Source: Raillietiella orientalis
Lineage: Eukaryota
Length of the DNA stretch: 64,000 nucleotides
Direction of reading: 5' to 3'
Assembly (NCBI GenBank): GCA_036172245.1
Contig: JAYWIR010000001.1
Location: 3,844,001 to 3,908,000 of the forward strand
Below, one piece after another: positions 2,557-21,968 of the stretch. The notes beneath the pieces are model-generated. The model ran no database searches. It was not told the origin of the DNA and saw nothing but the letters and a program-made list of their open reading frames with translations. Numbering within the stretch: the first letter of the stretch is position 1; each line of letters begins with the position of its first letter. A program made the position numbers and the translations under genes.

Positions 2557-4062
2557 TCAACAAACTGTTACTCCACCAACAGCTACTGTTGTTCCAGGAA
2601 GTTGATTAGCAGGCAGTCTAGAAATGATGCACTAAAGGAACATTGAATAACTACAAACTTGTTGCTAGCTATCTACCTGAGCATGTTGCTGATTAGTGCT
2701 CTGAAAAGCAATGCACATGGATGCTGTGGAATGGCCCCAACTGAAGCTAAATGTGGGATCATTCCTATACTTCTGTAACACAATGGTGCCAGCAAGCTTG
2801 GCTGAAACATCCTGTAGATACAAAGAATCTATACCAGTTTAATAATGCAGAGTACAGTGTTATAATACCAAAGAATTTTGTGCGGAAATAGCAATCCAAT
2901 GTTAAAGGAGGTTCTCTTTCAGGGTTGACCTGCAGAAAAGATGCTAGATCACGAGCAAAACAAGTCCTTATAAGTTGTTCACCACAGCCAGAAGTACTAA
3001 TTGCTACTGACCAAGATGGATGCTCTTCAGCCCAACATCCACAACCATAAATTGCAGCCTGGAAACATTTCTCACCATACACATAAGCAGCTTTTTACTT
3101 ACTTGGCCTATCCTGCCTGAATGTTTCAATGCAATACCTCCACTTGACACAGCACTAGCTACATTACCATGCAGATCCATACATACTGCTCCAACTGTGT
3201 CTAGCAACTGATTTTCACAAACATTCTTATTTACGCACATTTCATTTTGTTCAGCAGCCAGCTGTAAGCGATGCTGATATGTGATGAATTTTTTGTGAGC
3301 ATTTTCTACAAAAATTTTGCTATTTTCTTTGTGATGCTCAGCATACCTGATACTAGGTTGACCAACTCCTCTGTAACCTTATTTTCTAGTGCCCAATGTT
3401 GAGCACCACTGCCTACAAGAAAACTATGTACCATTTAGTTGAATGTTTCACTATAAGCATTTATCTTTACCATGGTGGTATTCTCCCCAACAACAGTTTG
3501 CCCTTTTTTTGTTCTTCCAACAACTTTAAAGCAACAAGAATAGGATTCTGGATATCTGATATTGCACCAACTGCTCCAAAATGACATCCTCTACCTTCCA
3601 TAATGCTTGCATCACACTCAACTGTTCCATGCTCCGTTAGATTAGAACCAAAACCTATGGGCTAAGATTAAGTGAACTTATCTTTTACCTATCACCTGCA
3701 TTTGTCAATTCAGAGTTTTCTAAAAGTGTTACTACTGTACTCGAAGCTTCCAAAGCTGATCCTTGCTGCATCAAAATTTCAGTGCCCTAAGATATAACCA
3801 ATTCACCAAGTGAATTAAAGATGAAGTAAATCACAATCATTTCTTCTCACTAAATATAGCTTAGTGTACTACAAGAAACTAAAGAGAATTAAAATACAAA
3901 AACCATTACTTTCTTGCAAGCCATTTTGCAAAGCTTTATGTATTGTTTTGTTTTCATTTTTGAATGATTTCCAGCACCTATATTTTTAATCAGATTAACA
4001 AGTTGGACGTTTAATATATACGTACCAAGATGTAAGGCAACAAAACCCTTCTTTTCTTCCAT
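2557..4062 (-). CDS. TASP1: Threonine aspartase 1 (Taspase1, Ntn-hydrolase/asparaginase-2 family), multi-exon
   Basis: ATG at 4062 (MEEKKGFVALHLGAGNH), then TNAGFGSNLTEHGTVECDASIM, the autocleavage site [33 protein letters not shown] and STSGCGEQLIRT. Stop TGA at 2557-2559. Confidence 0.93.
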
Positions 4063-6551: not shown

Positions 6552-9247
6552 ATGGAGAAATTATTTCTGTGTGGCACAAAATTTGCACACGAACTCATGT
6601 TAAAAACTAGCCGAACGTTTTGTAAAATGAAAAAAAACGCGGCAATGAAAGTAGCGGAGAGTGTAAAAGAAAGAGATTGTGAGAAAATCCGAAACATGGG
6701 TTTTTTAGCTCACGTGGATGCAGGTAACACCAAAATTCTCGTTTGGGGAAGGGACTATCTCTAAGAAAACTCCAAATTTGGTTGAAATGAGGCGATTGAG
6801 TAATATTTCCAAGGTAAAACTACTACTACCGAGAGAATGTTGTATTGTGCTGGGGAAACTAAATACATTGGTGATGTGGATGCCGGAAATACCGTAACTG
6901 ACTACATGGATCAGGAAAGAGCTCGAGGTTTTGCAGACTGTGTCTTGCCCAGTTGCAAATTTTCATGAAAGCGAATTTCGAATAGGAATCACAATTACAT
7001 CAGCAGCAGTTACAATGCTTTGGAATAATCACCGGCTGAATTTAATTGACACTCCAGGACACATTGATTTTACTGTGGAAGTGGAACGATGCTTGCAAAT
7101 ATTAGATGGAGCTATCATTATATTGGATGCAGTTGCAGGTATGTCATTCTGGTGTTTTCAGAAGTCCAGATGTCATGTTATAGGAGTCCAAGCTCAAACA
7201 TTTACTGTGTGGAAACAAGCACAGAACTATAGAGTTCCTCGTCTGATATTCATGAATAAGTTGGACAGGCAGTATGCTAATGTTGACAACTGCATTAGTG
7301 CTGTTAAAGAAAAACTTCGAGCTGTACCACTGCTCCTTCAATGTCCTATTGGTACTAATCAAAGCTTCTCTGGTGTTGTGGATCTAATAAAGATGAACAA
7401 GCTATTATGGCATCCAGCCACAACCTCAAAAGGAATTCTGTGAGGAAAACTGCCTAATAAGTGGTCAATAAGTGGTTAATTTCTTGCAGCTTCCATAAGG
7501 AACCTTTAAAACCTGAAACAGAGCCATGTATGTTTGAGCAGGCATGGTATCAGAGATCAGCATTAGTTGAGTTAGTGAGTGATCTTGATGACAAATTAGC
7601 TGAAATTGTTCTGACTAAAGAAAGCTATGAAAATGTACAAGGATTTGAATTAGAAACAGCTATACGTAGACTAGTTCTATCTCAGGTATATATAATTACT
7701 GTGGTCTTTATTAAGGACTTGTCATCATGCAGACAGCTGTTCCTGTCCTTCTTGGAAGTAGTTTTCATAAAATTGGTGTTCAACCATTAATGGATGCCAT
7801 TGTAAAATATCTGCCTGCCCCTACTGATATGCCATCTTTCAAAATAACTAAAGAGCTACATTGCTTGGTCTTCAAAATAATTTTCCATCCTTCTAAAGGA
7901 GCATTGACGTTTGTTCGAATTTATTCAGGCCATCTGATGCCTGTGAGTCATTTAGAAACTTATCATTACTGTCACCATAATGTTAGGGACAGAAAATCCT
8001 TTGTGGTAGAGAACAAAAAGTGGCAGAACAAGTTGGTCAGATATTTGTACCATTTGCTGATCAGTTTGAACAAGTGGAAAGTGCTGGTCCTGGCTGCATT
8101 GTTGCACTTACAGGACTTAAAGTGAGTGAATGCCTAAGCATGTTTCAATGATATGTCATTATAGTACAGCCACACAGGAGATATTCTCACTACAAAAACC
8201 TCTGAAGAGGTGGATGAATTATCAGCCATGCCATTTATGAACCTTCCATCACCTGTATTCTTTTGCAACATTGAAGCCCCATCTCCTAAACTCCAGAGCA
8301 AATTAGATGAGGCACTGACGTGTCTCCAAAGAGAAGACCCTAGCCTACATGTGCAAATAGATGCTGATACTGGGCAAACTATTTTATCAGGTAGATATCA
8401 CCTTCAAATGTTAAGGTAATCAGTTGTAGTTAGGAATGGGTGAATTACATCTGGATGTTGTTTTGGAGCGTATAGCCAAAGAATATTGCATTGAGGTGTA
8501 CACCAGTCGGCCCCAAGTGGCTTATAAAGAGACAGTGAAGACTTATGGAGCAAAAATGCTATGTTTCCAGAAAGAATCAAGTATGATGATCAGATCTTCT
8601 TAACTCTTGTGTTAGATTCAAGAAATAGTACAGTGGAAATCAGATTGGCAGTGCAGCCTTGCCAGCACATGCAGCCTGCTCTTCAGTTAGCACATGGACC
8701 TGACAAACGGGAATTATTAGAATCTTTAAAGCCAGTCCAGTTAGCTGCTATTTGGAAAGGAATTAAAAATGCACTGGCATATGGTCCACTAAATGGGTAT
8801 CCAGTAATACATGTGCAACCTATTTTGCATTCTTTCCATGCCAGACTTGGAACAGCAGAAAATACCATCAAAGCAGCAGCACAAGCTTGCATGCAGCAGG
8901 TACACAATTAGAATACTGTACTGCATATTTCATAGAATAGGTAGTTGCTCAATGAATGTGTTTGTGTTACATTGGAGCCAGTAATGAAGGTAGAAATCCT
9001 ACTGAACCCTGGACTTGTTGGTTTGGTCTTACAAGATCTGGCAACTCGAAAAGCAGCCATAGAGAAAATTCATGAATGTGCTGATATGCAGGTCATCAAT
9101 TGTCTTGTTCCTCTAGCTGCTCTTATGGGATATTCAACTGTTTTACGCACCTTAACAAGTGGATCTGGAACATTTACCATGGAGCTACATTCATATAGAG
9201 AAATCTCAAACCATGAGCAAGCAAAACTATCGCAAGGGCTCACTTGA
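6552..9247 (+). CDS. GFM2: Mitochondrial ribosome-releasing factor 2 (EF-G2mt), multi-exon
   Basis: [88 protein letters not shown] and [19 protein letters not shown]. The last motif is GFM2-type rather than GFM1. The start could be ATG 6552 or a downstream ATG. Confidence 0.92.
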
Positions 9248-9660: not shown

Positions 9661-11499
9661 TCACAACTACTGTAATCTTAGAAATTATATCACTAGGTCA
9701 TGTTTGTAGGATCTTTACCATGATTAGATGTTAGCATTCTGAGGCATAGCTGGTTTCTTACAAAGTGCACATCAAGTGCTTGGCCTATAGTGGGTCACAG
9801 TGGGACTTGGATGCGTGCATATGCAATGAGCATATAGCTACGAGACTTACATTCTTGAATAATAATATAATACCTTAGTATACACATATGCACAATCACA
9901 AGCACATATGTGCATGATTGGTATAAGAGCTATAGCATGCCGTGGCCGAAATCAAAATCAATGAGAATCCCAGTGATGAAAAATTGGTTGCACATTGAGA
10001 TGGAACAAGCAAATTGAAGACGCGGAGGTGCACGACTGTTTGCCATTTTGTGTTTTCACACCATTGATGGTTTGAAATACCCCCGTTGGGTACGAAGAAT
10101 ACGAAAACATGTGGCATTCCACAAATACATTGATGAATTGTGAATGACTTTGAGATGGAATAAAAATTCGCGCTTTGGAGAGTCCCACGAACGCTGAGAG
10201 AGATTCGCAAAAGCGGCAGATCCTTAAGTATTTTTGCCCATTTAGAACGAAGTTCAAATCCTACAACTGAACAACGGTTTCTGTTGAGCGCTCAAACTCC
10301 TCGATGGCAACTCTCATCAATCATCCAACATTGCATGTACATTCACAAAGGAAAACGGTGGTCCGAATCAACACATCTTGGTTGCATTTAGCACAAAACA
10401 TTCGACGCAAAACCAGTGATGCTGCTGATGCCATATTTTATTTCATTCCTTGATTTAACAAGAAATTTCTGTAAAAGGCTGAACTTTACATTTCGCACAG
10501 AATTGGAACACGTATGATCTGTTGCTTGGATGCCCAGTTTCAGTTCTCTACAATTTCCATCGCATTTTTCGTGTTTGTACTCACACATTTGCATTTCTGC
10601 AAAATTTTAGTTTTATGATACTTTCTACTTTTGCTAGGAATCATAACATCAACATTAAGTCATATTTTCAAAGTCGCCTGTGTGGAATAATAAAGGAATT
10701 AACGAGTGCATTTCAAGGGAAAAGCAAGTTGATTTCCAAATTTGCAACAGAAACCTCACGCAGGTACGGAAGGATTGCAGCATGGAAAACACCACAAAGC
10801 AATTTTAAAAGTGATAGAAACAACTCTTGGCAAGTCTGTTCCTTCATCATTGGTAACGGTGTCCACTGACCACTGTGGGGACGAGGCTCATTCATACCAA
10901 AGTGGCAAATGAAAGCCCCGTGCAGGTATCGTGCTCTGAAAGTAAAAACAAAATAAAAACCTTAAAATAAAGAGGTCTTGAAATCAACATAAAACAAGAA
11001 AATTCTGGAAAAATTCGTGGTGGTTTGACGCTCTCATTCAAGAATTTATTAGAATGAGTTTGAAAAATGATTCAAATGTAAACACGAAAAATAAATTCCG
11101 TCTTTCATGTCAAAGGTCAATTAGTCCGGTGCATATATACAGTGTGGACTCCAACTGAAGCGAAACATTGGCCACACTGTGCTTTTAGGAAAGCATCTCC
11201 AAGCTTTTCGACGAATGCACTCAGTCGATTCTAATGTCCAAACATTTAGAAGCCTCGTGAGATTCAATTTATGCACATCATTGCGAAGAAAGAATATAGA
11301 CTACCTGTAAGGATGATCCATAATTTTACTTCTCATTCGCAAATCTGTCAAGCTTTATTCAGCAGTACAAATTTTTGCTTTTCCGTTTGACTTCGTAACC
11401 CAAGGTCGGACTTCCAAAGCTTTGTGAGGTAACTGTGCCCCTAGGAGTATGGAATGGTTTTTGCAGCACAGACTATAAAATGTGGATAGACGAGCATGC

Positions 11500-12890
11500 T
11501 TGCATTTCACACTCACATTCCAAGGAGTGCCCGAAAGGAGGCTGCAGAGAAAAACACTGTGGGGCCACTATCGCCCAAGAGTTCGACTAAAACCCCTGTG
11601 TCGCCCCAGGGAAGAAGGCGGTTCCGGGATGAAGTCGCTTGCACACTCCATAGAAATCATGGATACGCGACACATCCTGGACATTGCCACTCACTGGGAT
11701 GACTGGCCGTATGCGGCGCACAGGGCCTACGCGTTGTTGTTGAACAACTCGAAAGGCCTGATGACTGCGCTGCTAGGCCGAGCAGGGGAATGGATAAAAA
11801 TCGACCCAACTTGGAGGAGGAAGCAACGGCTGGTGCGAAAGCACAAAATCAAGATCGTGCCGAGAAGTAGGGAACTCTGGCAGGACGAGTCCATCCTGGT
11901 GATCCCTTGGATGCTTCCTGTCCCGCCGGACACGAGAAGCTGGATCCAACAGCGGTCCAGAGTTACCCTACAACGAATCCAGGAGTGGAGGCGAGGAGGG
12001 TACCTACATCACACTCGTATACTTAGGTATATAGAGATGATGTTAGGAAGGTTTACCCACATGACCCGCGAGGTGTGGCTTAACCACAACGACTTCGCGT
12101 GGTCCAGGGTAATCAAAACAAACCTCCGAAGATTAATTCGGGAAGAAGACTGTGACATCAGTGCCCTCCAGGAAGCCGCCGATCGCTACGGAAGTGACCG
12201 GATCAACCAGCTAGCGATCGGCACGATGCTCTAAAGGAGTGACCTTCCGCCGGGCACCCAGGATGACCTCCTGATGTTTTATCATGGAGGAATCCAGAGT
12301 GGGTCCCGATTGCAGTACTATACCGGAAGACGGGAAGATCGAGACTGCAAGGCATGTGGAGACAACGACACGAGACTTCACGTCTTGACGTGTCCCACAT
12401 TGCTGCATGACTGGCTGATCCTGAAAAGGATCATCGGACTCACGAACAGATCCGTAATGGAGATCCTCGCCGGGATGTTTCAGGGGGATGGTAATGTTCC
12501 CTGTTACAATCCCATGGTGAGGACGACCATTGCCCTCTTCATCACCGCCATACTTGTGCGGTGGTGGAAAATGAGGAAAGCCAGGAGACCCGCACCACCG
12601 ATGGAGATCCTACAAGGGCTCCTGAAGAGGGTAATCGGCATTAGGAACTGTGGGAAAATCCAAGCCTGGACGTACCGATTCATCCTGAAGAGGATAGAAG
12701 ACGACGCCCGGGACCAAACAGCAGGAAACCCACCCTGAAAGCAGAACTTGTGATACCCCCAAGGACTTCAAAGTGATAAAGTGTTGGTATGTTGTATGAA
12801 TGTGATTGTAGAATGAATGAGATTCAAAAGAAAAGAAACTTACCCCACCCCTTGTGGGACTTGGAGAGCAAGGAGTCCCGACACAATTTA
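11500..12890 (+). mobile_element. 5'-truncated non-LTR retrotransposon (L1/Tx1-type), ORF2 C-terminal region plus 3' UTR
   Basis: Intronless GC-rich ORF with LWG..RPRV...LCRPREEGGSG (GGLG-type motif) and a C-terminal zinc knuckle CKACGDNDTRLHVLTCP. ORFs 11482-12234 and 12274-12738 are in the same frame, separated by one TAA (12232-12234). A terminal hairpin gggact...agtccc lies near 12856-12879. Boundaries are approximate. Confidence 0.85.
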
Positions 12891-15291: not shown

Positions 15292-15361
15292 CTTGCGTTG
15301 CTTCTGTGAGAGTTTCAAAAGAGAGCTTGCTTTTGTGAAGCTCTCACAGAAGCAACGCAAG
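15292..15361. repeat. Perfect 21-bp inverted repeat forming a 70-nt hairpin
   Basis: cttgcgttgcttctgtgagag (15292-15312) is the exact reverse complement of ctctcacagaagcaacgcaag (15341-15361). Further pairing extends into the spacer. Confidence 0.95.
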
Positions 15362-17284
15362 CTGAAAACATTTCTGGATGCTGGGAGACAGAGATCTGAA
15401 TGGAGCACAATTCATAGCGATCTTTCATCTGAAAACTTGGATTTGATGTGATCACAATATTAAGACCGGGAGTTGCCAGACTTGAAACAGCACAGAACGA
15501 ATGCCTTCGGGAATCACTCACTTGACTGTCGCAAAAGGTCACAAAAGTGCTATCTTGTTGCTTGTCAGGCTGATTTTGGTATATTCTTGCCGACTTTGTC
15601 TCGAATGCTGGAAACAGGATTTCCGGTTGCAACAAGCATGCGTCCAATGTGTCAACATTTTCGAGAAATTCAGAAGCAGATCCATTTGATAAACTCCAGA
15701 TAGTTGCAATTACATAATTAGGTGACTCAATTTGAAACTCAAATCCTTAGAGAACCATGTTTGCAGACATTTGTGTTACAAAGGCCAATCTGCATCGCGA
15801 ACAGAAGACTTGAAATAACGGTGAAAAAGTCAATGCGCCGGATTCATGAAGCTAAAGAATGCACCGAGTTGATTTGAGCTCAAGGATCATATCAATGTGA
15901 ATTTTCTGAGAAAGGCGTAGTAGAATGGATTTCAGGTGCAGAATTTGAGAGCAAATGGTAGCTCGAACGCGAATACGACGGCGTGACTCTGACCTGAGTA
16001 TTGCGATGTCTAGGAGAGGATAAAGAGGAGGATAGCCCGTCGTATAGATGACAAGATGGTGTGGTGTTTATGATGCAAATGAGAGCTGTATACTTATATT
16101 TTCTTAATTGACATTTTTGAGTGAATGTAAATCATTCTGCAAGAAGGTATCTGTCAAATTCCGGATTGTTAATCATTTCTTGGCTAGAAGCGGCTGTAAC
16201 GTCGATACCTTCATTCATTGCTACCTGAATTCTTTATCACATTTATGAATGGATTTCTGTGAATCTGATCTTCCGTTTTCAAGCAAAAAGGATTCGTTTT
16301 TGCAAATCCCAGACACAAATCTTATAGCTCCACATGTCAACAGGAGTGATAGATATCGTCCCAAGTGTTTTGTTTTGCCAAGAAGTGAATATGCGAAGCT
16401 ACTAACAAAATAAAAAAAAAATGAGATGAAAAATATGAAATTCGTCAGGAATAAATATGAAATCCTATGTTCCCTTATTATATGATCTGCACGATTTATG
16501 ATCTGTATAGGAATCAGCTTAGAGGCGGCACCGAGCACTATCCAAATGTTCACTCACAGGGAAAAACGCTACGTCTAGCCTTTTGGGAAAGCCCATCTAG
16601 CGGGTAAAAGCATTTTATCCCGCTGGGCGGGGACTCCAGTGGTTTTTACATCTCCGGCCGCCGAGGTTTAGGGATTTTTCCATGGGTCGTAGGGAAAACT
16701 TTCAACGATGGATGTGGTAGACGGTCCTGCACAGAATTCCGGATGTTTCATCCACCCCTGCTTCCGACTTCCGGCCGATATGGACTCGCATTAGTAAATT
16801 ATCGACAAAGGCTGTCGAGGAAAACGACTTCCTTATCATTAAAGCATTTCGATATTTGAATTCTGTTCGTTTCAGTGCAACGGCAAATTTCCATTTTTCC
16901 TTGCAATTTACAGACTGTTCTAACGCTTCCTTTGAACCATAAGAGCGGCAGTGCGGCCCTCCCTTTGCAAACGTGTCGAAGAACACGGGCAGCAGCCGTG
17001 GCTTCATAACATAAACGTCACGTCATCAACAATTGATTGGTAATTTTATTTTTGTACCGTTGAATCGGAAGATTAAATGACATTACGTGTGCTGTGATAT
17101 AATGGGCTTCAACACCTCGTGCTGTATTAAATTATTAGGTGTGTACTGTACAATTTTTATTCACTGTTTCACTCAAGGTATGGGGACGCAATATAATAAT
17201 AATAATAAATTCCTAGGTATTGAAACCTGGAGATTTTTATGGGCGGACTTTTGGGCGGGTTTTCGGAGGCCACCTAGCGGGATT

Positions 17285-20200
17285 TGGGAACAGGGAAACC
17301 ACGAAGGTACGCCTGGAGTCCTTTCAGTCTCAGTCGACTTGTGGAAAGCTTTCGATTTTCACCCGGGTTTCACCGGGGCGTTTATTGTAACTTTGAAACG
17401 TGTTGTGGTTGTGCTGTGCTGTGGCTCCAGCCACACACGAAGAAACACAGAACCTGCCGGGTCACCGGTTCGCAGACCGGTACGGTCCACCACGGCAGCA
17501 GGGGGAAGGGATCAAACAAAAAGAAAGAAAACGTGGGAGGGTACGGGATGGGATCACTGTTGCTGCTGGGGCCGTTGCATCCTTCGCAGGATGCCGGCAA
17601 GCTCTTTCTGTATTCCTGGATCCAGGTGGGACCATCGTGACGCCCTCCTCAAAAATTCGGCGGCGTGCTGGATGGCACCCTTATGGCGAGCCTTGCTCCA
17701 AGCGGCGACGATCCTGCGAAGGCAGCACAGGGCTGCTAACGAGACCGCAGGCCGAAGGGCGTCGGCAACGAAGAGGGCTTTTAAGGCGTCCCTGGGGTTG
17801 CCGCAAGGGATTCCGATGGCCGCGGCAAAGCGTAGCCAAAGGGGTCGAAGGGCAACACAATCCACAAGTAGGTGGGGGAGGGACTCCCGTTCCCCACACC
17901 TAACAGTTGGGCTTCACCGCTCCCCAGGTCCAATGGTGTCGGCGGGCGTTGCAGGGGAGCCCCCATTGCTGCAACAGTAGCGCTGACTCCTGCCATTTTA
18001 AGGAGAGGATGGAGGTGTTCATGAGCGCCGGGGGCCACTTCAGATGTTCAATCGGAACATCGAGCAGCGCGCCCCAGCTCAGAAGTCCATGGGGAGGCGT
18101 ACTCGGAGTCGCAGCGTCTGTTAGCTGGCGTTAGCTCTCCTATCTTCTCCTTTCCGGAGATGCTGACTGCAACCCCCCACTTCGCCGCAACATCGTTGTC
18201 CAGATCTTCCATTAGGGAGGCCAGCTCAGCAGCGAGGGGGGTCGGAAAACTTTCGACTGCGTCGATCAGGAACTCCTTTGGAAGCTCCTGAAACGCATGG
18301 GTTTTCCGGGCATTTTTCAGGCCTACCTGCGCTCCTGCTGGCACAATGCAATAATCAACATCTTTTTTAGCGGCTGTCACGTGTACGGCGTGCCCGTCCG
18401 CAGTGGCATAAGGCAGGTGACAATCTGAGCCCCTTGCTCTTCAACACCTACTTTGAATTGGTGCTGAGAGTATACAGGGAAACCCTAGCAACCCTGCCGA
18501 GCTCGTGTCCGGGCACGTCTGCCGTATCGAATTATGCAGACGACCTTTTGCTGCTGCCTCCCGGGTCCACCCCGACGTCCGCGCTCGAAGACTTCGAGAT
18601 ACTGCGCCACGGGACGGGCCTGGAGGTGAACAGGACGGAGTCATCCATCGTCCCAATTGGTACGGCATGGACCGGACGGCCGGACTGAATCCGCTTGGGG
18701 ATCCCCATGGACCTTGGAGTTCCGTTGGGAGACTTCTGCGTGGCAGAAGCCTGGTCCGGCCGTGGAGATGGCGATTGGCCCATTCCAAAATGACAAGTTT
18801 CACCTGCCAGAACGAGCGGCTTTGTGGAACGCGTTCGCAGCCCCCCTGCTTCGTCCCCTCCCTTTTGTTTGCCCCGCCTATGTAGACTTCCGGAAAAAAA
18901 CGGAGGACCTACTCCGAAAAGCCCTTTGGGGCAAGTGGGAGGTCCAGAGCCCGGTTAAAAGAACTCGGTGCTCCGCGTAGGGATGGTGGACTGGACCTCC
19001 TTAAGCTGGAGAGAATGGAACATCAGCTCCAATTCCGCAGACTTGCCTTCACGTCCAAGCATTCGAATACACCTTGGTGCGCTTCTGCAAGAAGTCTCGC
19101 CAAGCAGGCAACCGGCTGCGCCGGACTGACCTCGGTCGTCGTGGCCACCGAAAGGAGTCTGGACCACCTTGGTTCGCGGCTCCGGAAGATGGTTGTCCTT
19201 GTGCAGAAGAACCCCTGGATTTCCGTTCTCCCCGCAAACTGGACTACCTGACTACAGGAGTTAGTTTTCGCTTGGGGAAAAATCAACAGCACGGGCGAGG
19301 CAGAGTTCATCTGCCTCCGGAACAGCAGATACGCTCGTAAGCCGCTAGAGAACACCAGGAATCTGCTGTGGGCTTCACCCCCCTCGCCCCAGTGCTGCCC
19401 TTTCTGAGAGGAGCAATGGACAGCCAGCATCCAGCGAGGTAGGAAGTGACCTGCGTGATGAGGGGCAGGAAAAAACATCTGGCTGAGCGGACAACTCGGG
19501 AGCTGGCGGATGCCGCGACCCCGAGTATCCCGCCTAAAGGAATGTTAAGAGGGGAAAGCTGCTATAAATTCCTCCTCCGGAGGTAGGATGGCCTCCAGCG
19601 TGCTGGAACAGTGCTACCCCCTTCCCCCCTCCCCCCTGAAGTGGCAAGAGTCGGCGGCCCTGCTGTTGCACTGGGATCTCCCGTCTAATGCCGGCCGACA
19701 CCATTGGACCCGGGGAAGTGTAAGCCCCAACTGTGGCGGGTGCGGAGAGAGTCCCTCTCACACCTGCTAATGGATTGTGTCGCCCTCCGTCCCATGTATG
19801 AACCCGTTGCCGCGTCCCTGTGGATTCCGGAGGGCAACTCCAGAGACGTTTTAAAGCTCCTCTTCCAGCGCAACGCCCTCACGCCAGCTGCATCCTTAGC
19901 AACACTGCTGTCTGCGCTGGATCGTGGCTGCATGGAGCTACGCAAGAGGACAGAACGACAGGGACGCCATCTATTTTGCTGTCCTCTTTCTGAGGACAGC
20001 GTACAGATGGCGCCATCTGGGAACTTTGAGATCTGAACTTGTCAAAATCCTTACAAGAATGCAGAGGAGACCCTCCAGCACCAGTGATCCCTTCCTAAAT
20101 CCACCACTTTTTTTTTTGGTGCATTTTTGCTTTCTATTTGTTTTCATCCCCTGCCCCTGTGCTGTAGAGATGATCCCGCTGGCCTGCGTGCCAGCTACCG

Positions 20201-20291
20201 GCAGAATCCTGTGGTAACAAGTAACGTGGAAGGATAGATCACAGAAATATATAGTTTTTTAAATAAATGCCCCGGCGTGACCTGGTGTCAG
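17285..20291 (+). mobile_element. Outer 5'-truncated non-LTR retrotransposon (L1/Tx1-type RT), degenerate, interrupted by an antisense copy
   Basis: RT motifs VDLWKAFD/CVDQELLWKLL, SGIRQ(G)DNLSPLLF, NYADDLLL, LWG....RDGGL and a zinc knuckle CGGCGE..SHLLMDC, with several frameshifts. Flanked by identical 12-bp repeats cctagcgggatt at 17273-17284 and 20292-20303. Confidence 0.9.
17356..18243 (-). mobile_element. Inner 5'-truncated non-LTR retrotransposon, related subfamily, inserted antisense into the outer copy
   Basis: The minus strand encodes LKWQESALLLQQWGLPCNARRHHW...CGERESLPHLLVDCVALRP, homologous to the outer copy's C-terminus. It has AATAAA, a short A4 tail (tttt 17356-17359) and a 13-bp TSD: ggaaagctttcga (17343-17355) / ggaaaactttcga (18244-18256). 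Confidence 0.9.
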
Positions 20292-21125
20292 CCTAGCGGG
20301 ATTCCAATAACTTGTGTTAATGGCAACCCTGGGCACCCTAGTTGTCTGGATATTGCAACCCTAACCCTGAACAGAATCTGCAGTTGTCCTTGCAACTACC
20401 TCCTGACCAATAGAATCCTGAAGCCCTATTCGAAAGCACCGTTGTTGCTGGACTTTAAAAGCTCTTGAAAGAATGCCTATTCACTACTTGCCTATTTCGT
20501 TTCCACCTGAGCAAAAAGTAGGCCCGAGAATCGCTTGCGGACTGCGCAAACCAAAAGTTAAAAAAAGTTCCACACGTGATGTCTCGCGGATTTGTCCTCG
20601 AGCACTGCTGAAATTGATGCACAGCACGTTTTCCCGAACTGTTTTGAAAGGAAAGCGTGAAAGACTTTTTCTTGAAATAAAATGTAGGCCTAAAGATACA
20701 ATAAGGTCAACAGCTGTCCTTTCGGAAAGGTAATGCTTCCCATTCAGATACTGCAATTTTGAGCTCTTGAATCGAAACACCAAGCAAAAGCACGTTCAAA
20801 TGCTCCGAGGCAGGAATGGAATATCTTGTTGCATAAAATTCTCTGCAAAATATTTAGAAACAAGTCCCAAACAAATTTCAAAACCCAGATAGTTTTGAAT
20901 AAATCGGGTTTTCATTAACGGCAGCATTTCGTCAATTTTTTTTTCCTGGTAAAAACGATGTTAGCGTTTCTTGGAATTGCGAGAAACTTTGATCTGCAAA
21001 TCGACGGCAAAAAAATCATCGATTTCAGGATGATTTTATCGCGGAAAAAAAAAAAATTACAGCCCTCCGTCTTCGAACTACTTTGATTGCAGCAAATTAC
21101 ATGGGTGGGTTTATTTCTCTTGTGA

Positions 21126-21968
21126 CTATTTGCTCTTATTATTTTCCAAACGTGTTCCAAGCACTTTTCTACGCTGATGTACCAAATGCATAAATAGGCG
21201 GGGAAATACTAAACAGAGAAAGACAAAAAAAAACAAAAAAATTTGACTACAGATTGATGGCAGGTAAATACCTGGTATGTACAGTAACATTCCTACCAAA
21301 ATATAGTAATGATGGTAAATAGTAAAATCATACAAATTACTTCCACCTTGTTTGGTGAGCTGAAATGCAATGTACAGGCACCACAATTCACCAAGTACGC
21401 CTAGCGGATACAGGATGTAAAATAAGCTATAACTGAAATACAGCATGAGGCTTGTTTGTGCACCAGTGTACTTTTGAAACTCACCGTAGCCAAATAAGAG
21501 GCTTTAACTTGAATCCTACCAAGTTACAGATGTAAAAACTATAGCGAACCACTTCAGTAAGTGTCCAGGCAAACAGCACAAGCGAATAACTAATTCCTCT
21601 CGCCTCTGTTATAACATTGCACACGCTCCATAATATAAGCACACGGGAAAGTATTTGAAACGCTGTGTTCACAACGTTGGCCTTCACAATACCAAAGGCG
21701 GTGTGCAGAATCTGCAAAAATGCATAACACATCCATCACTGCAATCATCATCACACCTCTAACAATGCCGCCGTCTGGCAAACTTTTAAAATCAAATTTG
21801 TTGTCATCCATAAGGAGCCTGCATTGGTAACAAATCTCCCAAAGTTGTACAGTAGGTAGCACCACCTAGATCTCACTCAAGTTCTGGAAAAATCAAGGCA
21901 TATTTGGGCACTCACCCAATTAACTGCAAAGAGTTGTACAAGAATAGATACTTCTTACTGAACTCCAT
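21126..21968 (-). CDS. HACD: Very-long-chain (3R)-3-hydroxyacyl-CoA dehydratase (HACD1/2, PTPLA/Phs1 family), multi-exon
   Basis: MEFSKKYLFLYNSLQLIG, ILHTAFGIVK, FQILSRV, AWTLTEVVRYSFY, WLRYSLFYILYPLGVLGE (catalytic Y..E) and YIP.FPRLFMHLVHQRRKVL. Confidence 0.92.

Follow-up and report, generated by a model that had tools for sequence, protein, structure and literature searches.

A stretch of 64,000 nucleotides from Raillietiella orientalis (the window; G000:C1:3844001-3908000 of an assembly of 210 Mb in 491 contigs) carries two nested long interspersed elements (LINEs), the inner of which lies antisense and splits the codons of the conserved KAFD motif in the reverse transcriptase (RT) of the outer. 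The inner copy belongs to a family that is termed family A here, and with a probability of roughly 0.82 it represents one case of a family-wide target bias, the main target of family A being the KAFD-C codons of sister LINEs.

That the nested pair is real is confirmed, on the basis of the assembly sequence. The preliminary description had claimed an antisense copy within a sister element, with both target-site duplications (TSDs) recoverable, and this holds for both the outer duplication (12/12) and the inner one (12/13; Table 1). The two outer pieces share one frame, reading ...VDLWKAFDCVDQELLWKLL... (with the inner copy taken out, VDLWKAFDCVDQ), and together they align to the family-A reference from position 3463 onward. 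A comparable TSD within 20 bp of a given junction has a chance of about 2e-6 for the outer and about 2e-5 for the inner element. Both LINEs are 5'-truncated and decayed, with stops and frameshifts in each. The inner one matches the last 930 nt of a full-length copy of family A (5.57 kb) at 85% identity and has 40 further matches at 77-86%, while the 3' piece of the outer one has relatives at 70-78% and is 71% identical to family A over 832 nt. Between each other the two are 71% identical over 304 nt, with a longest perfect stretch of 17 nt, so that double-stranded RNA formed by their sense and antisense 3' regions, as had also been proposed, is a weak possibility.

Table 1. Components of the nested pair (window positions) and recurrent insertion sites of sister families (positions on the family-A reference)
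Feature	Position	Strand or orientation	Remarks
Outer LINE, left TSD	17273..17284	+	12 bp, CCTAGCGGGATT, identical to 20292-20303
Outer LINE, 5' piece	17285..17355	+	truncated within RT, ends in V-D-L-W-K-A-F-D codons (from translation)
Inner TSD, copy at 3' end of inner element	17343..17355	+	12/13 match to 18244-18256
Inner LINE, family A	17356..18243	-	888 bp, 5'-truncated; C-terminal remnant of open reading frame 2 (ORF2) with zinc finger, 3' untranslated region (UTR)
Family-A 3' end	17356..17386	-	AATAAA followed by a short G+C hairpin and GAAAA, poly(A) tail absent
Inner TSD, copy at 5' end of inner element	18244..18256	+	one mismatch
Outer LINE, 3' piece	18257..20291	+	remaining RT (YADD), zinc finger, 3' UTR ending AATAAA-hairpin-TCAG (from translation)
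Outer LINE, right TSD	20292..20303	+	copy of CCTAGCGGGATT, 12/12
Sister-family site	reference 1200	antisense	2 ends
Sister-family site	reference 1389	sense	3 ends, two of them duplicates
Sister-family site	reference 1935	antisense	3 ends
Sister-family site	reference 1961	antisense	4 ends
Sister-family site	reference 2660	antisense	7 ends
Sister-family site	reference 2828	antisense	6 ends
Sister-family site	reference 3232	antisense	3 ends, in NADAKL codons
Sister-family site	reference 4972	antisense	3 ends
Sister-family site		sense	6 ends in endonuclease GDFN codons, two at the same place

The bias becomes apparent when the ends of family A are compared across the genome. The characteristic 3' end has 310 genome matches at up to one mismatch (reversed control, 0), and 111 ends were examined, comprising 97 of 100 listed positions and 14 others from already retrieved loci; three positions on contig C13 were left aside as the mirror duplicate of a block on C11. 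All 111 ends are followed by TCGA with at most one mismatch, 90 of them exactly, and 72 have a KAFD-type flank (63 of the 97 listed). Of these flanks, 56 lie in the RT of another subfamily, 9 preserve KAF only, 6 belong to copies that form a stack with a family-A copy inserted before them, at its 5' end, and 1 lies in family A itself. When exact junctions are counted over the whole genome, antisense KAF codons follow in 168 of 302; this pattern count possibly takes in a few ends from a sister family whose tail is similar. TSDs, searched as repeats at the 5' boundary defined by BLAST with one mismatch allowed, were verified in 60 of the 111 ends; they measure 11-24 bp (mode 14-15) and enclose copies of 20-5570 nt. 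Among the 60, 32 are at KAFD, every one antisense and with its priming nick after TTCGA in the same register as in the window, and 28 are elsewhere. The KAFD insertions can be taken as independent events because the 20 truncated copies among them have 20 different lengths, no pair of the 32 has both flanks at 95% identity or more, and the hosts, 65-80% identical to family A, are spread over several subfamilies. The preliminary description had proposed comparing 3' junctions and TSDs over all copies, and such a comparison over the 111 ends found a recurrent target. A specificity for related elements, which had been supposed as a possibility, is strongly supported for the inner family, but it does not extend to the outer one, for which no fixed target was found: 13 ends with its tail have varied flanks.

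Two side observations belong to this census. Head-to-tail stacks of family-A copies occur at L167, L102, L123, L126, L139 and L140, the later copy occupying the site left by the TSD at the earlier copy's 5' end. Furthermore, G000:C11:4629725-4642180 and G000:C13:2461223-2473678 share three family-A ends, identically spaced but in mirrored order, a block that is either a segmental or an assembly duplicate.

The 28 verified sites outside KAFD define the nick motif YTCGA^STGC on the priming strand, with nothing informative past position -5, whereas the KAFD sites match out to position -11. When a matrix is built from these 28 sites alone, the GAC-type KAFD nick receives the top score among about 6000 positions in four of four intact sisters. 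The matrix scores the opposite orientation at 5.4 bits versus 9.6-12.8 bits, which explains the fixed antisense orientation. On the nicked strand, the core that is recognised is TCGA and then STGC. The palindrome GAAAGCTTTC, earlier suspected as the target, is incidental to this core and was rejected as dependent on wobble bases of the host: it requires the codons AAA GCT, which a count by eye found in 17 among the first 100 listed KAF junctions. Neither the two other TCGA sites beside KAFD nor the sense orientation are truly used among the 111 ends, and the sole pattern match to such use turned out on inspection to be an antisense KAFD flank. The flanks of the 28 off-target sites (e.g. L061, L063, L066, L120 and L147) are mostly G+C-rich, with values of 0.33-0.73 as compared with mostly 0.30-0.48 in the window.

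The motif does not account for the bias by itself. A perfect 9-mer occurs at 10,086 genome sites, and 7 of the 28 off-target sites match it perfectly, but its use per site is only about 0.35%, as opposed to about 26% for KAFD (168 hits, 471 intact sites), and the 9-mer alone is therefore insufficient. The resulting ratio of about 75 is rough: it is raised by tandem stacks and duplicates, and counts by exact pattern are too low on both sides. A second peculiarity of the KAFD sites is that they hold the full-length copies, 15 of 15 by BLAST, and among the TSD-verified copies 12 of 32 at KAFD versus 0 of 28 elsewhere (Fisher p 1.8e-4). In these full-length copies the two TSD copies often differ at wobble-type positions (8/15, as compared with 1/20 truncated copies, p 0.002), and the departures lie in the 5' copy of the 14-nt target. 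At L159, L162, L098, L160 and L169, one intact host type is the best match of both flanks, and the 5' target copy nevertheless differs from that host, mostly towards one common spelling. Such a spelling fits a transcript that carries the target copy of its donor as a leader, the cDNA of which would anneal to the cut top strand; an annealing of this sort has been put forward for Drosophila R1 (PMC2718515).

The copies themselves show that family A primes directly after TCGA on the sense strand of the host, preferably in the context YTCGA^STGC, and that insertions there are therefore antisense and split the RT frame of the host; as the duplication leaves a usable site at the 5' junction, copies stack in tandem. 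The endonuclease is predicted to read the 9-bp motif, and a second layer of specificity would lift KAFD about 75-fold over other matches to it. This second layer is probably in part donor-flank sequence on the RNA, the 5' leader with the 14-nt target copy of the donor, so that only KAFD insertions would be finished to full length, a view to which we give slightly better than even odds. It has to be weighed that L094 and L155 retain the host spelling in the 5' target copy, that one of the full-length cases (L167) is a tandem stack, that the flanks of L099 come from two host types, so that recombination also swaps flanks, and that the one-mismatch filter for TSDs favours concordance in the truncated set.

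Alternatively, the additional specificity could come from the 3' end of the RNA, if the transcript reads into the KAFD flank of its donor and pairs with the primer strand. This is a variant of the explanation just given and compatible with it, set against longer protein contacts or a 5' leader, and we consider it rather unlikely as the source of the second layer. It would suit the base-precise 3' junctions without poly(A) tail, and the contrast between off-target sites that are uninformative past -5 and KAFD sites that match to -11 is what would be expected of an all-or-none pairing; a pairing of this kind has been proposed for Drosophila R1 (PMC2718515). The pairing would however leave no trace in the DNA.

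A different kind of explanation assumes a weak motif only, any TCGA^STGC-like site being nicked and the excess at KAFD arising by purifying selection or chromatin, because clusters of dead LINEs are harmless or accessible. The 9-bp motif alone indeed already puts KAFD at the top within a host, the mostly G+C-rich off-target flanks give a hint of a regional bias, and full-length copies elsewhere could be purged faster. Yet off-target copies have survived in large number, for the most part in DNA that has no relation to these LINEs, and with 10,086 perfect 9-mers as compared to several hundred KAFD sites, nearly all insertions outside KAFD would have to be lost. Moreover, the KAFD share is high on the ten largest contigs as well (18/31), which altogether makes this explanation improbable. 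Finally, a multiplication of one or few nested composites by segmental duplication or collapsed assembly is very improbable and largely refuted, since some duplicates do exist (the mirrored C11/C13 block, L091/L095, L008/L009), but the truncation lengths, the TSD lengths and the variety of hosts speak against it, as does the identity of the inserted copies to the reference, which spans about 81% to 96%.

The target bias of family A towards KAFD has to be weighed against some counterevidence. As 134 of the 302 junctions are not of the KAF type, and only 32 of the 60 verified insertions are at KAFD, the specificity is not strict in the way of R2-like elements. The TSD was verified in only 60 of 111 ends, and L137 and L158, with flanks at 95/96%, are possibly one event. 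At L174, outside the sample of 111, a family-A end, without TSD check, is probably sense-oriented at the upstream neighbouring TCGA of a GAT host, and within one assembly retention and insertion bias are inseparable.

The aspartate codon of the target may be of importance for the frequency of use. Family-A copies that are at least 95% identical to the reference spell their own site TTC GAT TGC, whereas several more diverged copies have GAC. With a T after the nick, the site scores 8.5 instead of 12.8 bits on the matrix. No off-target site (0 of 28) has this T; among the hosts that were hit it is present in 2 of 32, as against 186 of the 471 intact sites (p 2e-5), and among those hit by young inserts in 0 of 15. 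The family's own sites make up about 17% of the intact ones, a share derived from 44 of the first 100 GAT rows listed (counted by eye), yet only 1 of 57 assignable hosts. By inspection, GAT is present in at least four lineages of a tree of 106 sequences, in which the GAC hosts are the loci already collected. It could be that young family A, like other young families, runs a lower risk of being hit owing to its synonymous change from GAC to GAT, which we regard as a weaker point with somewhat less than even odds. An absolute self-immunity by GAT was rejected, as there are self-hits (L152, and seen from the host side L170, L110 and L106) as well as hits in GAT hosts (L169, L132); any protection is partial, and GAT families may simply be younger, host age being a confounder that is not fully removed.

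As to its nature, family A is an APE-type LINE of the L1/Tx1 group with a biased target. A full-length copy has a putative ORF1 and an ORF2, the latter with an N-terminal apurinic/apyrimidinic endonuclease (APE), an RT and a C-terminal zinc finger, as is typical for APE-type non-LTR elements (LTR, long terminal repeat), and the fixed 3' end, the variable 5' truncation and the TSDs of the 60 verified copies are hallmarks of target-primed reverse transcription. The copy at L093 keeps an ORF2 frame of 1215 codons (P0001), in which Pfam detects the endonuclease (PF03372, E 7e-9) and the RT (PF00078, E 4e-21), the zf-RVT match (PF13966) being weak with E 1e-3, under its curated cut-off. At L094, a 465-codon upstream frame has two motifs resembling Cys/His knuckles by eye and no Pfam match. 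The RT is nearer to L1 than to R2, with E 5e-45 for L1 ORF2p versus 2e-13 or weaker for R2-type proteins, in a comparison with solved structures whose matches contained only these two types. Outside relatives of ORF2 are distant; the best match is P0002 with 27% identity, which looks Tx1-like by its motifs, and no named Tx1 sequence is among the database matches. Family A shows a target preference, a trait of the Tx1 clade, and a membership in that clade is plausible. A strong 3' hairpin was rejected, as two of three ends tested are no better than shuffles; z is -2.0 in the window copy and -0.8 in L093.

Other subfamilies with the same 3' hairpin also recur at single positions of the family-A reference (Table 1). 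As the ends come from loci that were chosen for family A, few are TSD-checked and some are possibly duplicates, these fixed positions are only a lead. The loci noted for them are L102, L105, L129; L116, L048, L064, L051, L059; and further L093, L098, L099, L101, L088, L109; L123, L179, L180 and L182-L184, covering the NADAKL and GDFN codons and the reference positions 2660 and 2828. The match to the reference stops at 3213-3215 in five family-A copies (L097, L102, L105, L143, L129), near the NADAKL site used by a sister family, and L024 (3573-3799, minus reading) holds at least four tandem copies, with a period of 62 bp, of a sister LINE's 3' end. Tentatively, one can imagine a community of sibling LINEs, each aimed at a fixed base in the coding sequence of the others, family A at KAFD and others at no fewer than eight further recurring positions including GDFN and NADAKL. 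Competitors would be knocked out at motifs conserved in their proteins, and attackers and victims might escape by synonymous recoding such as GAC to GAT, a scenario that we consider possible while giving it less than even odds.

The remainder of the window contains, at 11479-12870 (+), a third, distant LINE fragment with 23% protein identity to the C-terminal part of family-A ORF2, for which no convincing TSD was found and which has close copies (77-91%) in L152, L096, L140, L034 and L126. A 32-bp inverted repeat with 91% complementarity and a 6-nt loop is located at 15292-15361. Exons of ordinary intron-split genes are found at 1632-2075, 3004-3378, 6898-8911 and 21126-21503, among them those of a mitochondrial EF-G2-like gene; others presumably belong to an NDUFAF5-type methyltransferase, a taspase and a 3-hydroxyacyl-CoA dehydratase.

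Inteins and homing endonucleases likewise have targets in conserved coding sequence, where drift is hardly possible, and the Chlorella element Zepp inserts into copies of itself, but no splicing restores the host of family A, and unlike Zepp, family A mostly hits relatives. The L1 elements have a short degenerate nick motif, TSDs and frequent 5' truncation, end in poly(A) and insert genome-wide at T-rich sites. With human LINE-1 ORF2p (PDB 8uw3 and others) family A shares the APE endonuclease, the RT and the C-terminal zinc finger, but it ends in a hairpin with GAAAA, and over half of all its copies are found at a single codon position. Further parallels are Tx1-clade LINEs that target transposons, of which PMC4494074 describes Xenopus Tx1 in Tx1D, crocodilian Tx1-Mar in Mariner-N4_AMi, Tx1-8_Crp and Tx1-4_AMi in long terminal repeat elements, and Tx1-9_AMi in Harbinger. 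According to the same paper, they share with family A a target preference that varies in strength, insertion into a multicopy transposon at a set position and in a set orientation, tandem copies around a TSD, and 5' extensions that stem from the donor flank. Their targets are DNA transposons or LTR elements, whereas that of family A is a conserved RT motif of its own group, which sits in several host subfamilies and in family A itself. Like Drosophila R1, which together with R2 inserts into the 28S rDNA, family A has a 14-nt target copy (a 14-bp top-strand offset in R1), precise junctions and some off-target copies, and it is the flanking target sequence on the R1 transcript that has been proposed to anneal and thereby to yield precise junctions (PMC2718515); the target of R1 and R2 is however a host rRNA gene. 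No report of a LINE targeting the RT motif of related LINEs was found in a literature search that had Repbase reports, most subscription journals and the supplementary target tables of PMC4494074 outside its range. Tx1 elements that target transposons are already known. The present analysis adds a count over the whole genome, a motif for the off-target sites, the restriction of full-length copies to KAFD and a test of codon state.

The relatives of family A thus serve it as landing sites and are broken in the process. By landing in the conserved RT motif of its kin, each such insertion spares the genes of the host organism and disables a competitor. With events in the hundreds, a nick motif that is defined and a candidate escape allele of one base, competition between transposons becomes measurable in this system. 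Family A further offers a nearly intact APE endonuclease with a predicted new G+C-rich specificity, and a natural test of RNA flanks adding specificity to target-primed integration. If the sister families are aimed at each other as outlined above, an arms race among retrotransposons would be legible directly in their codons.

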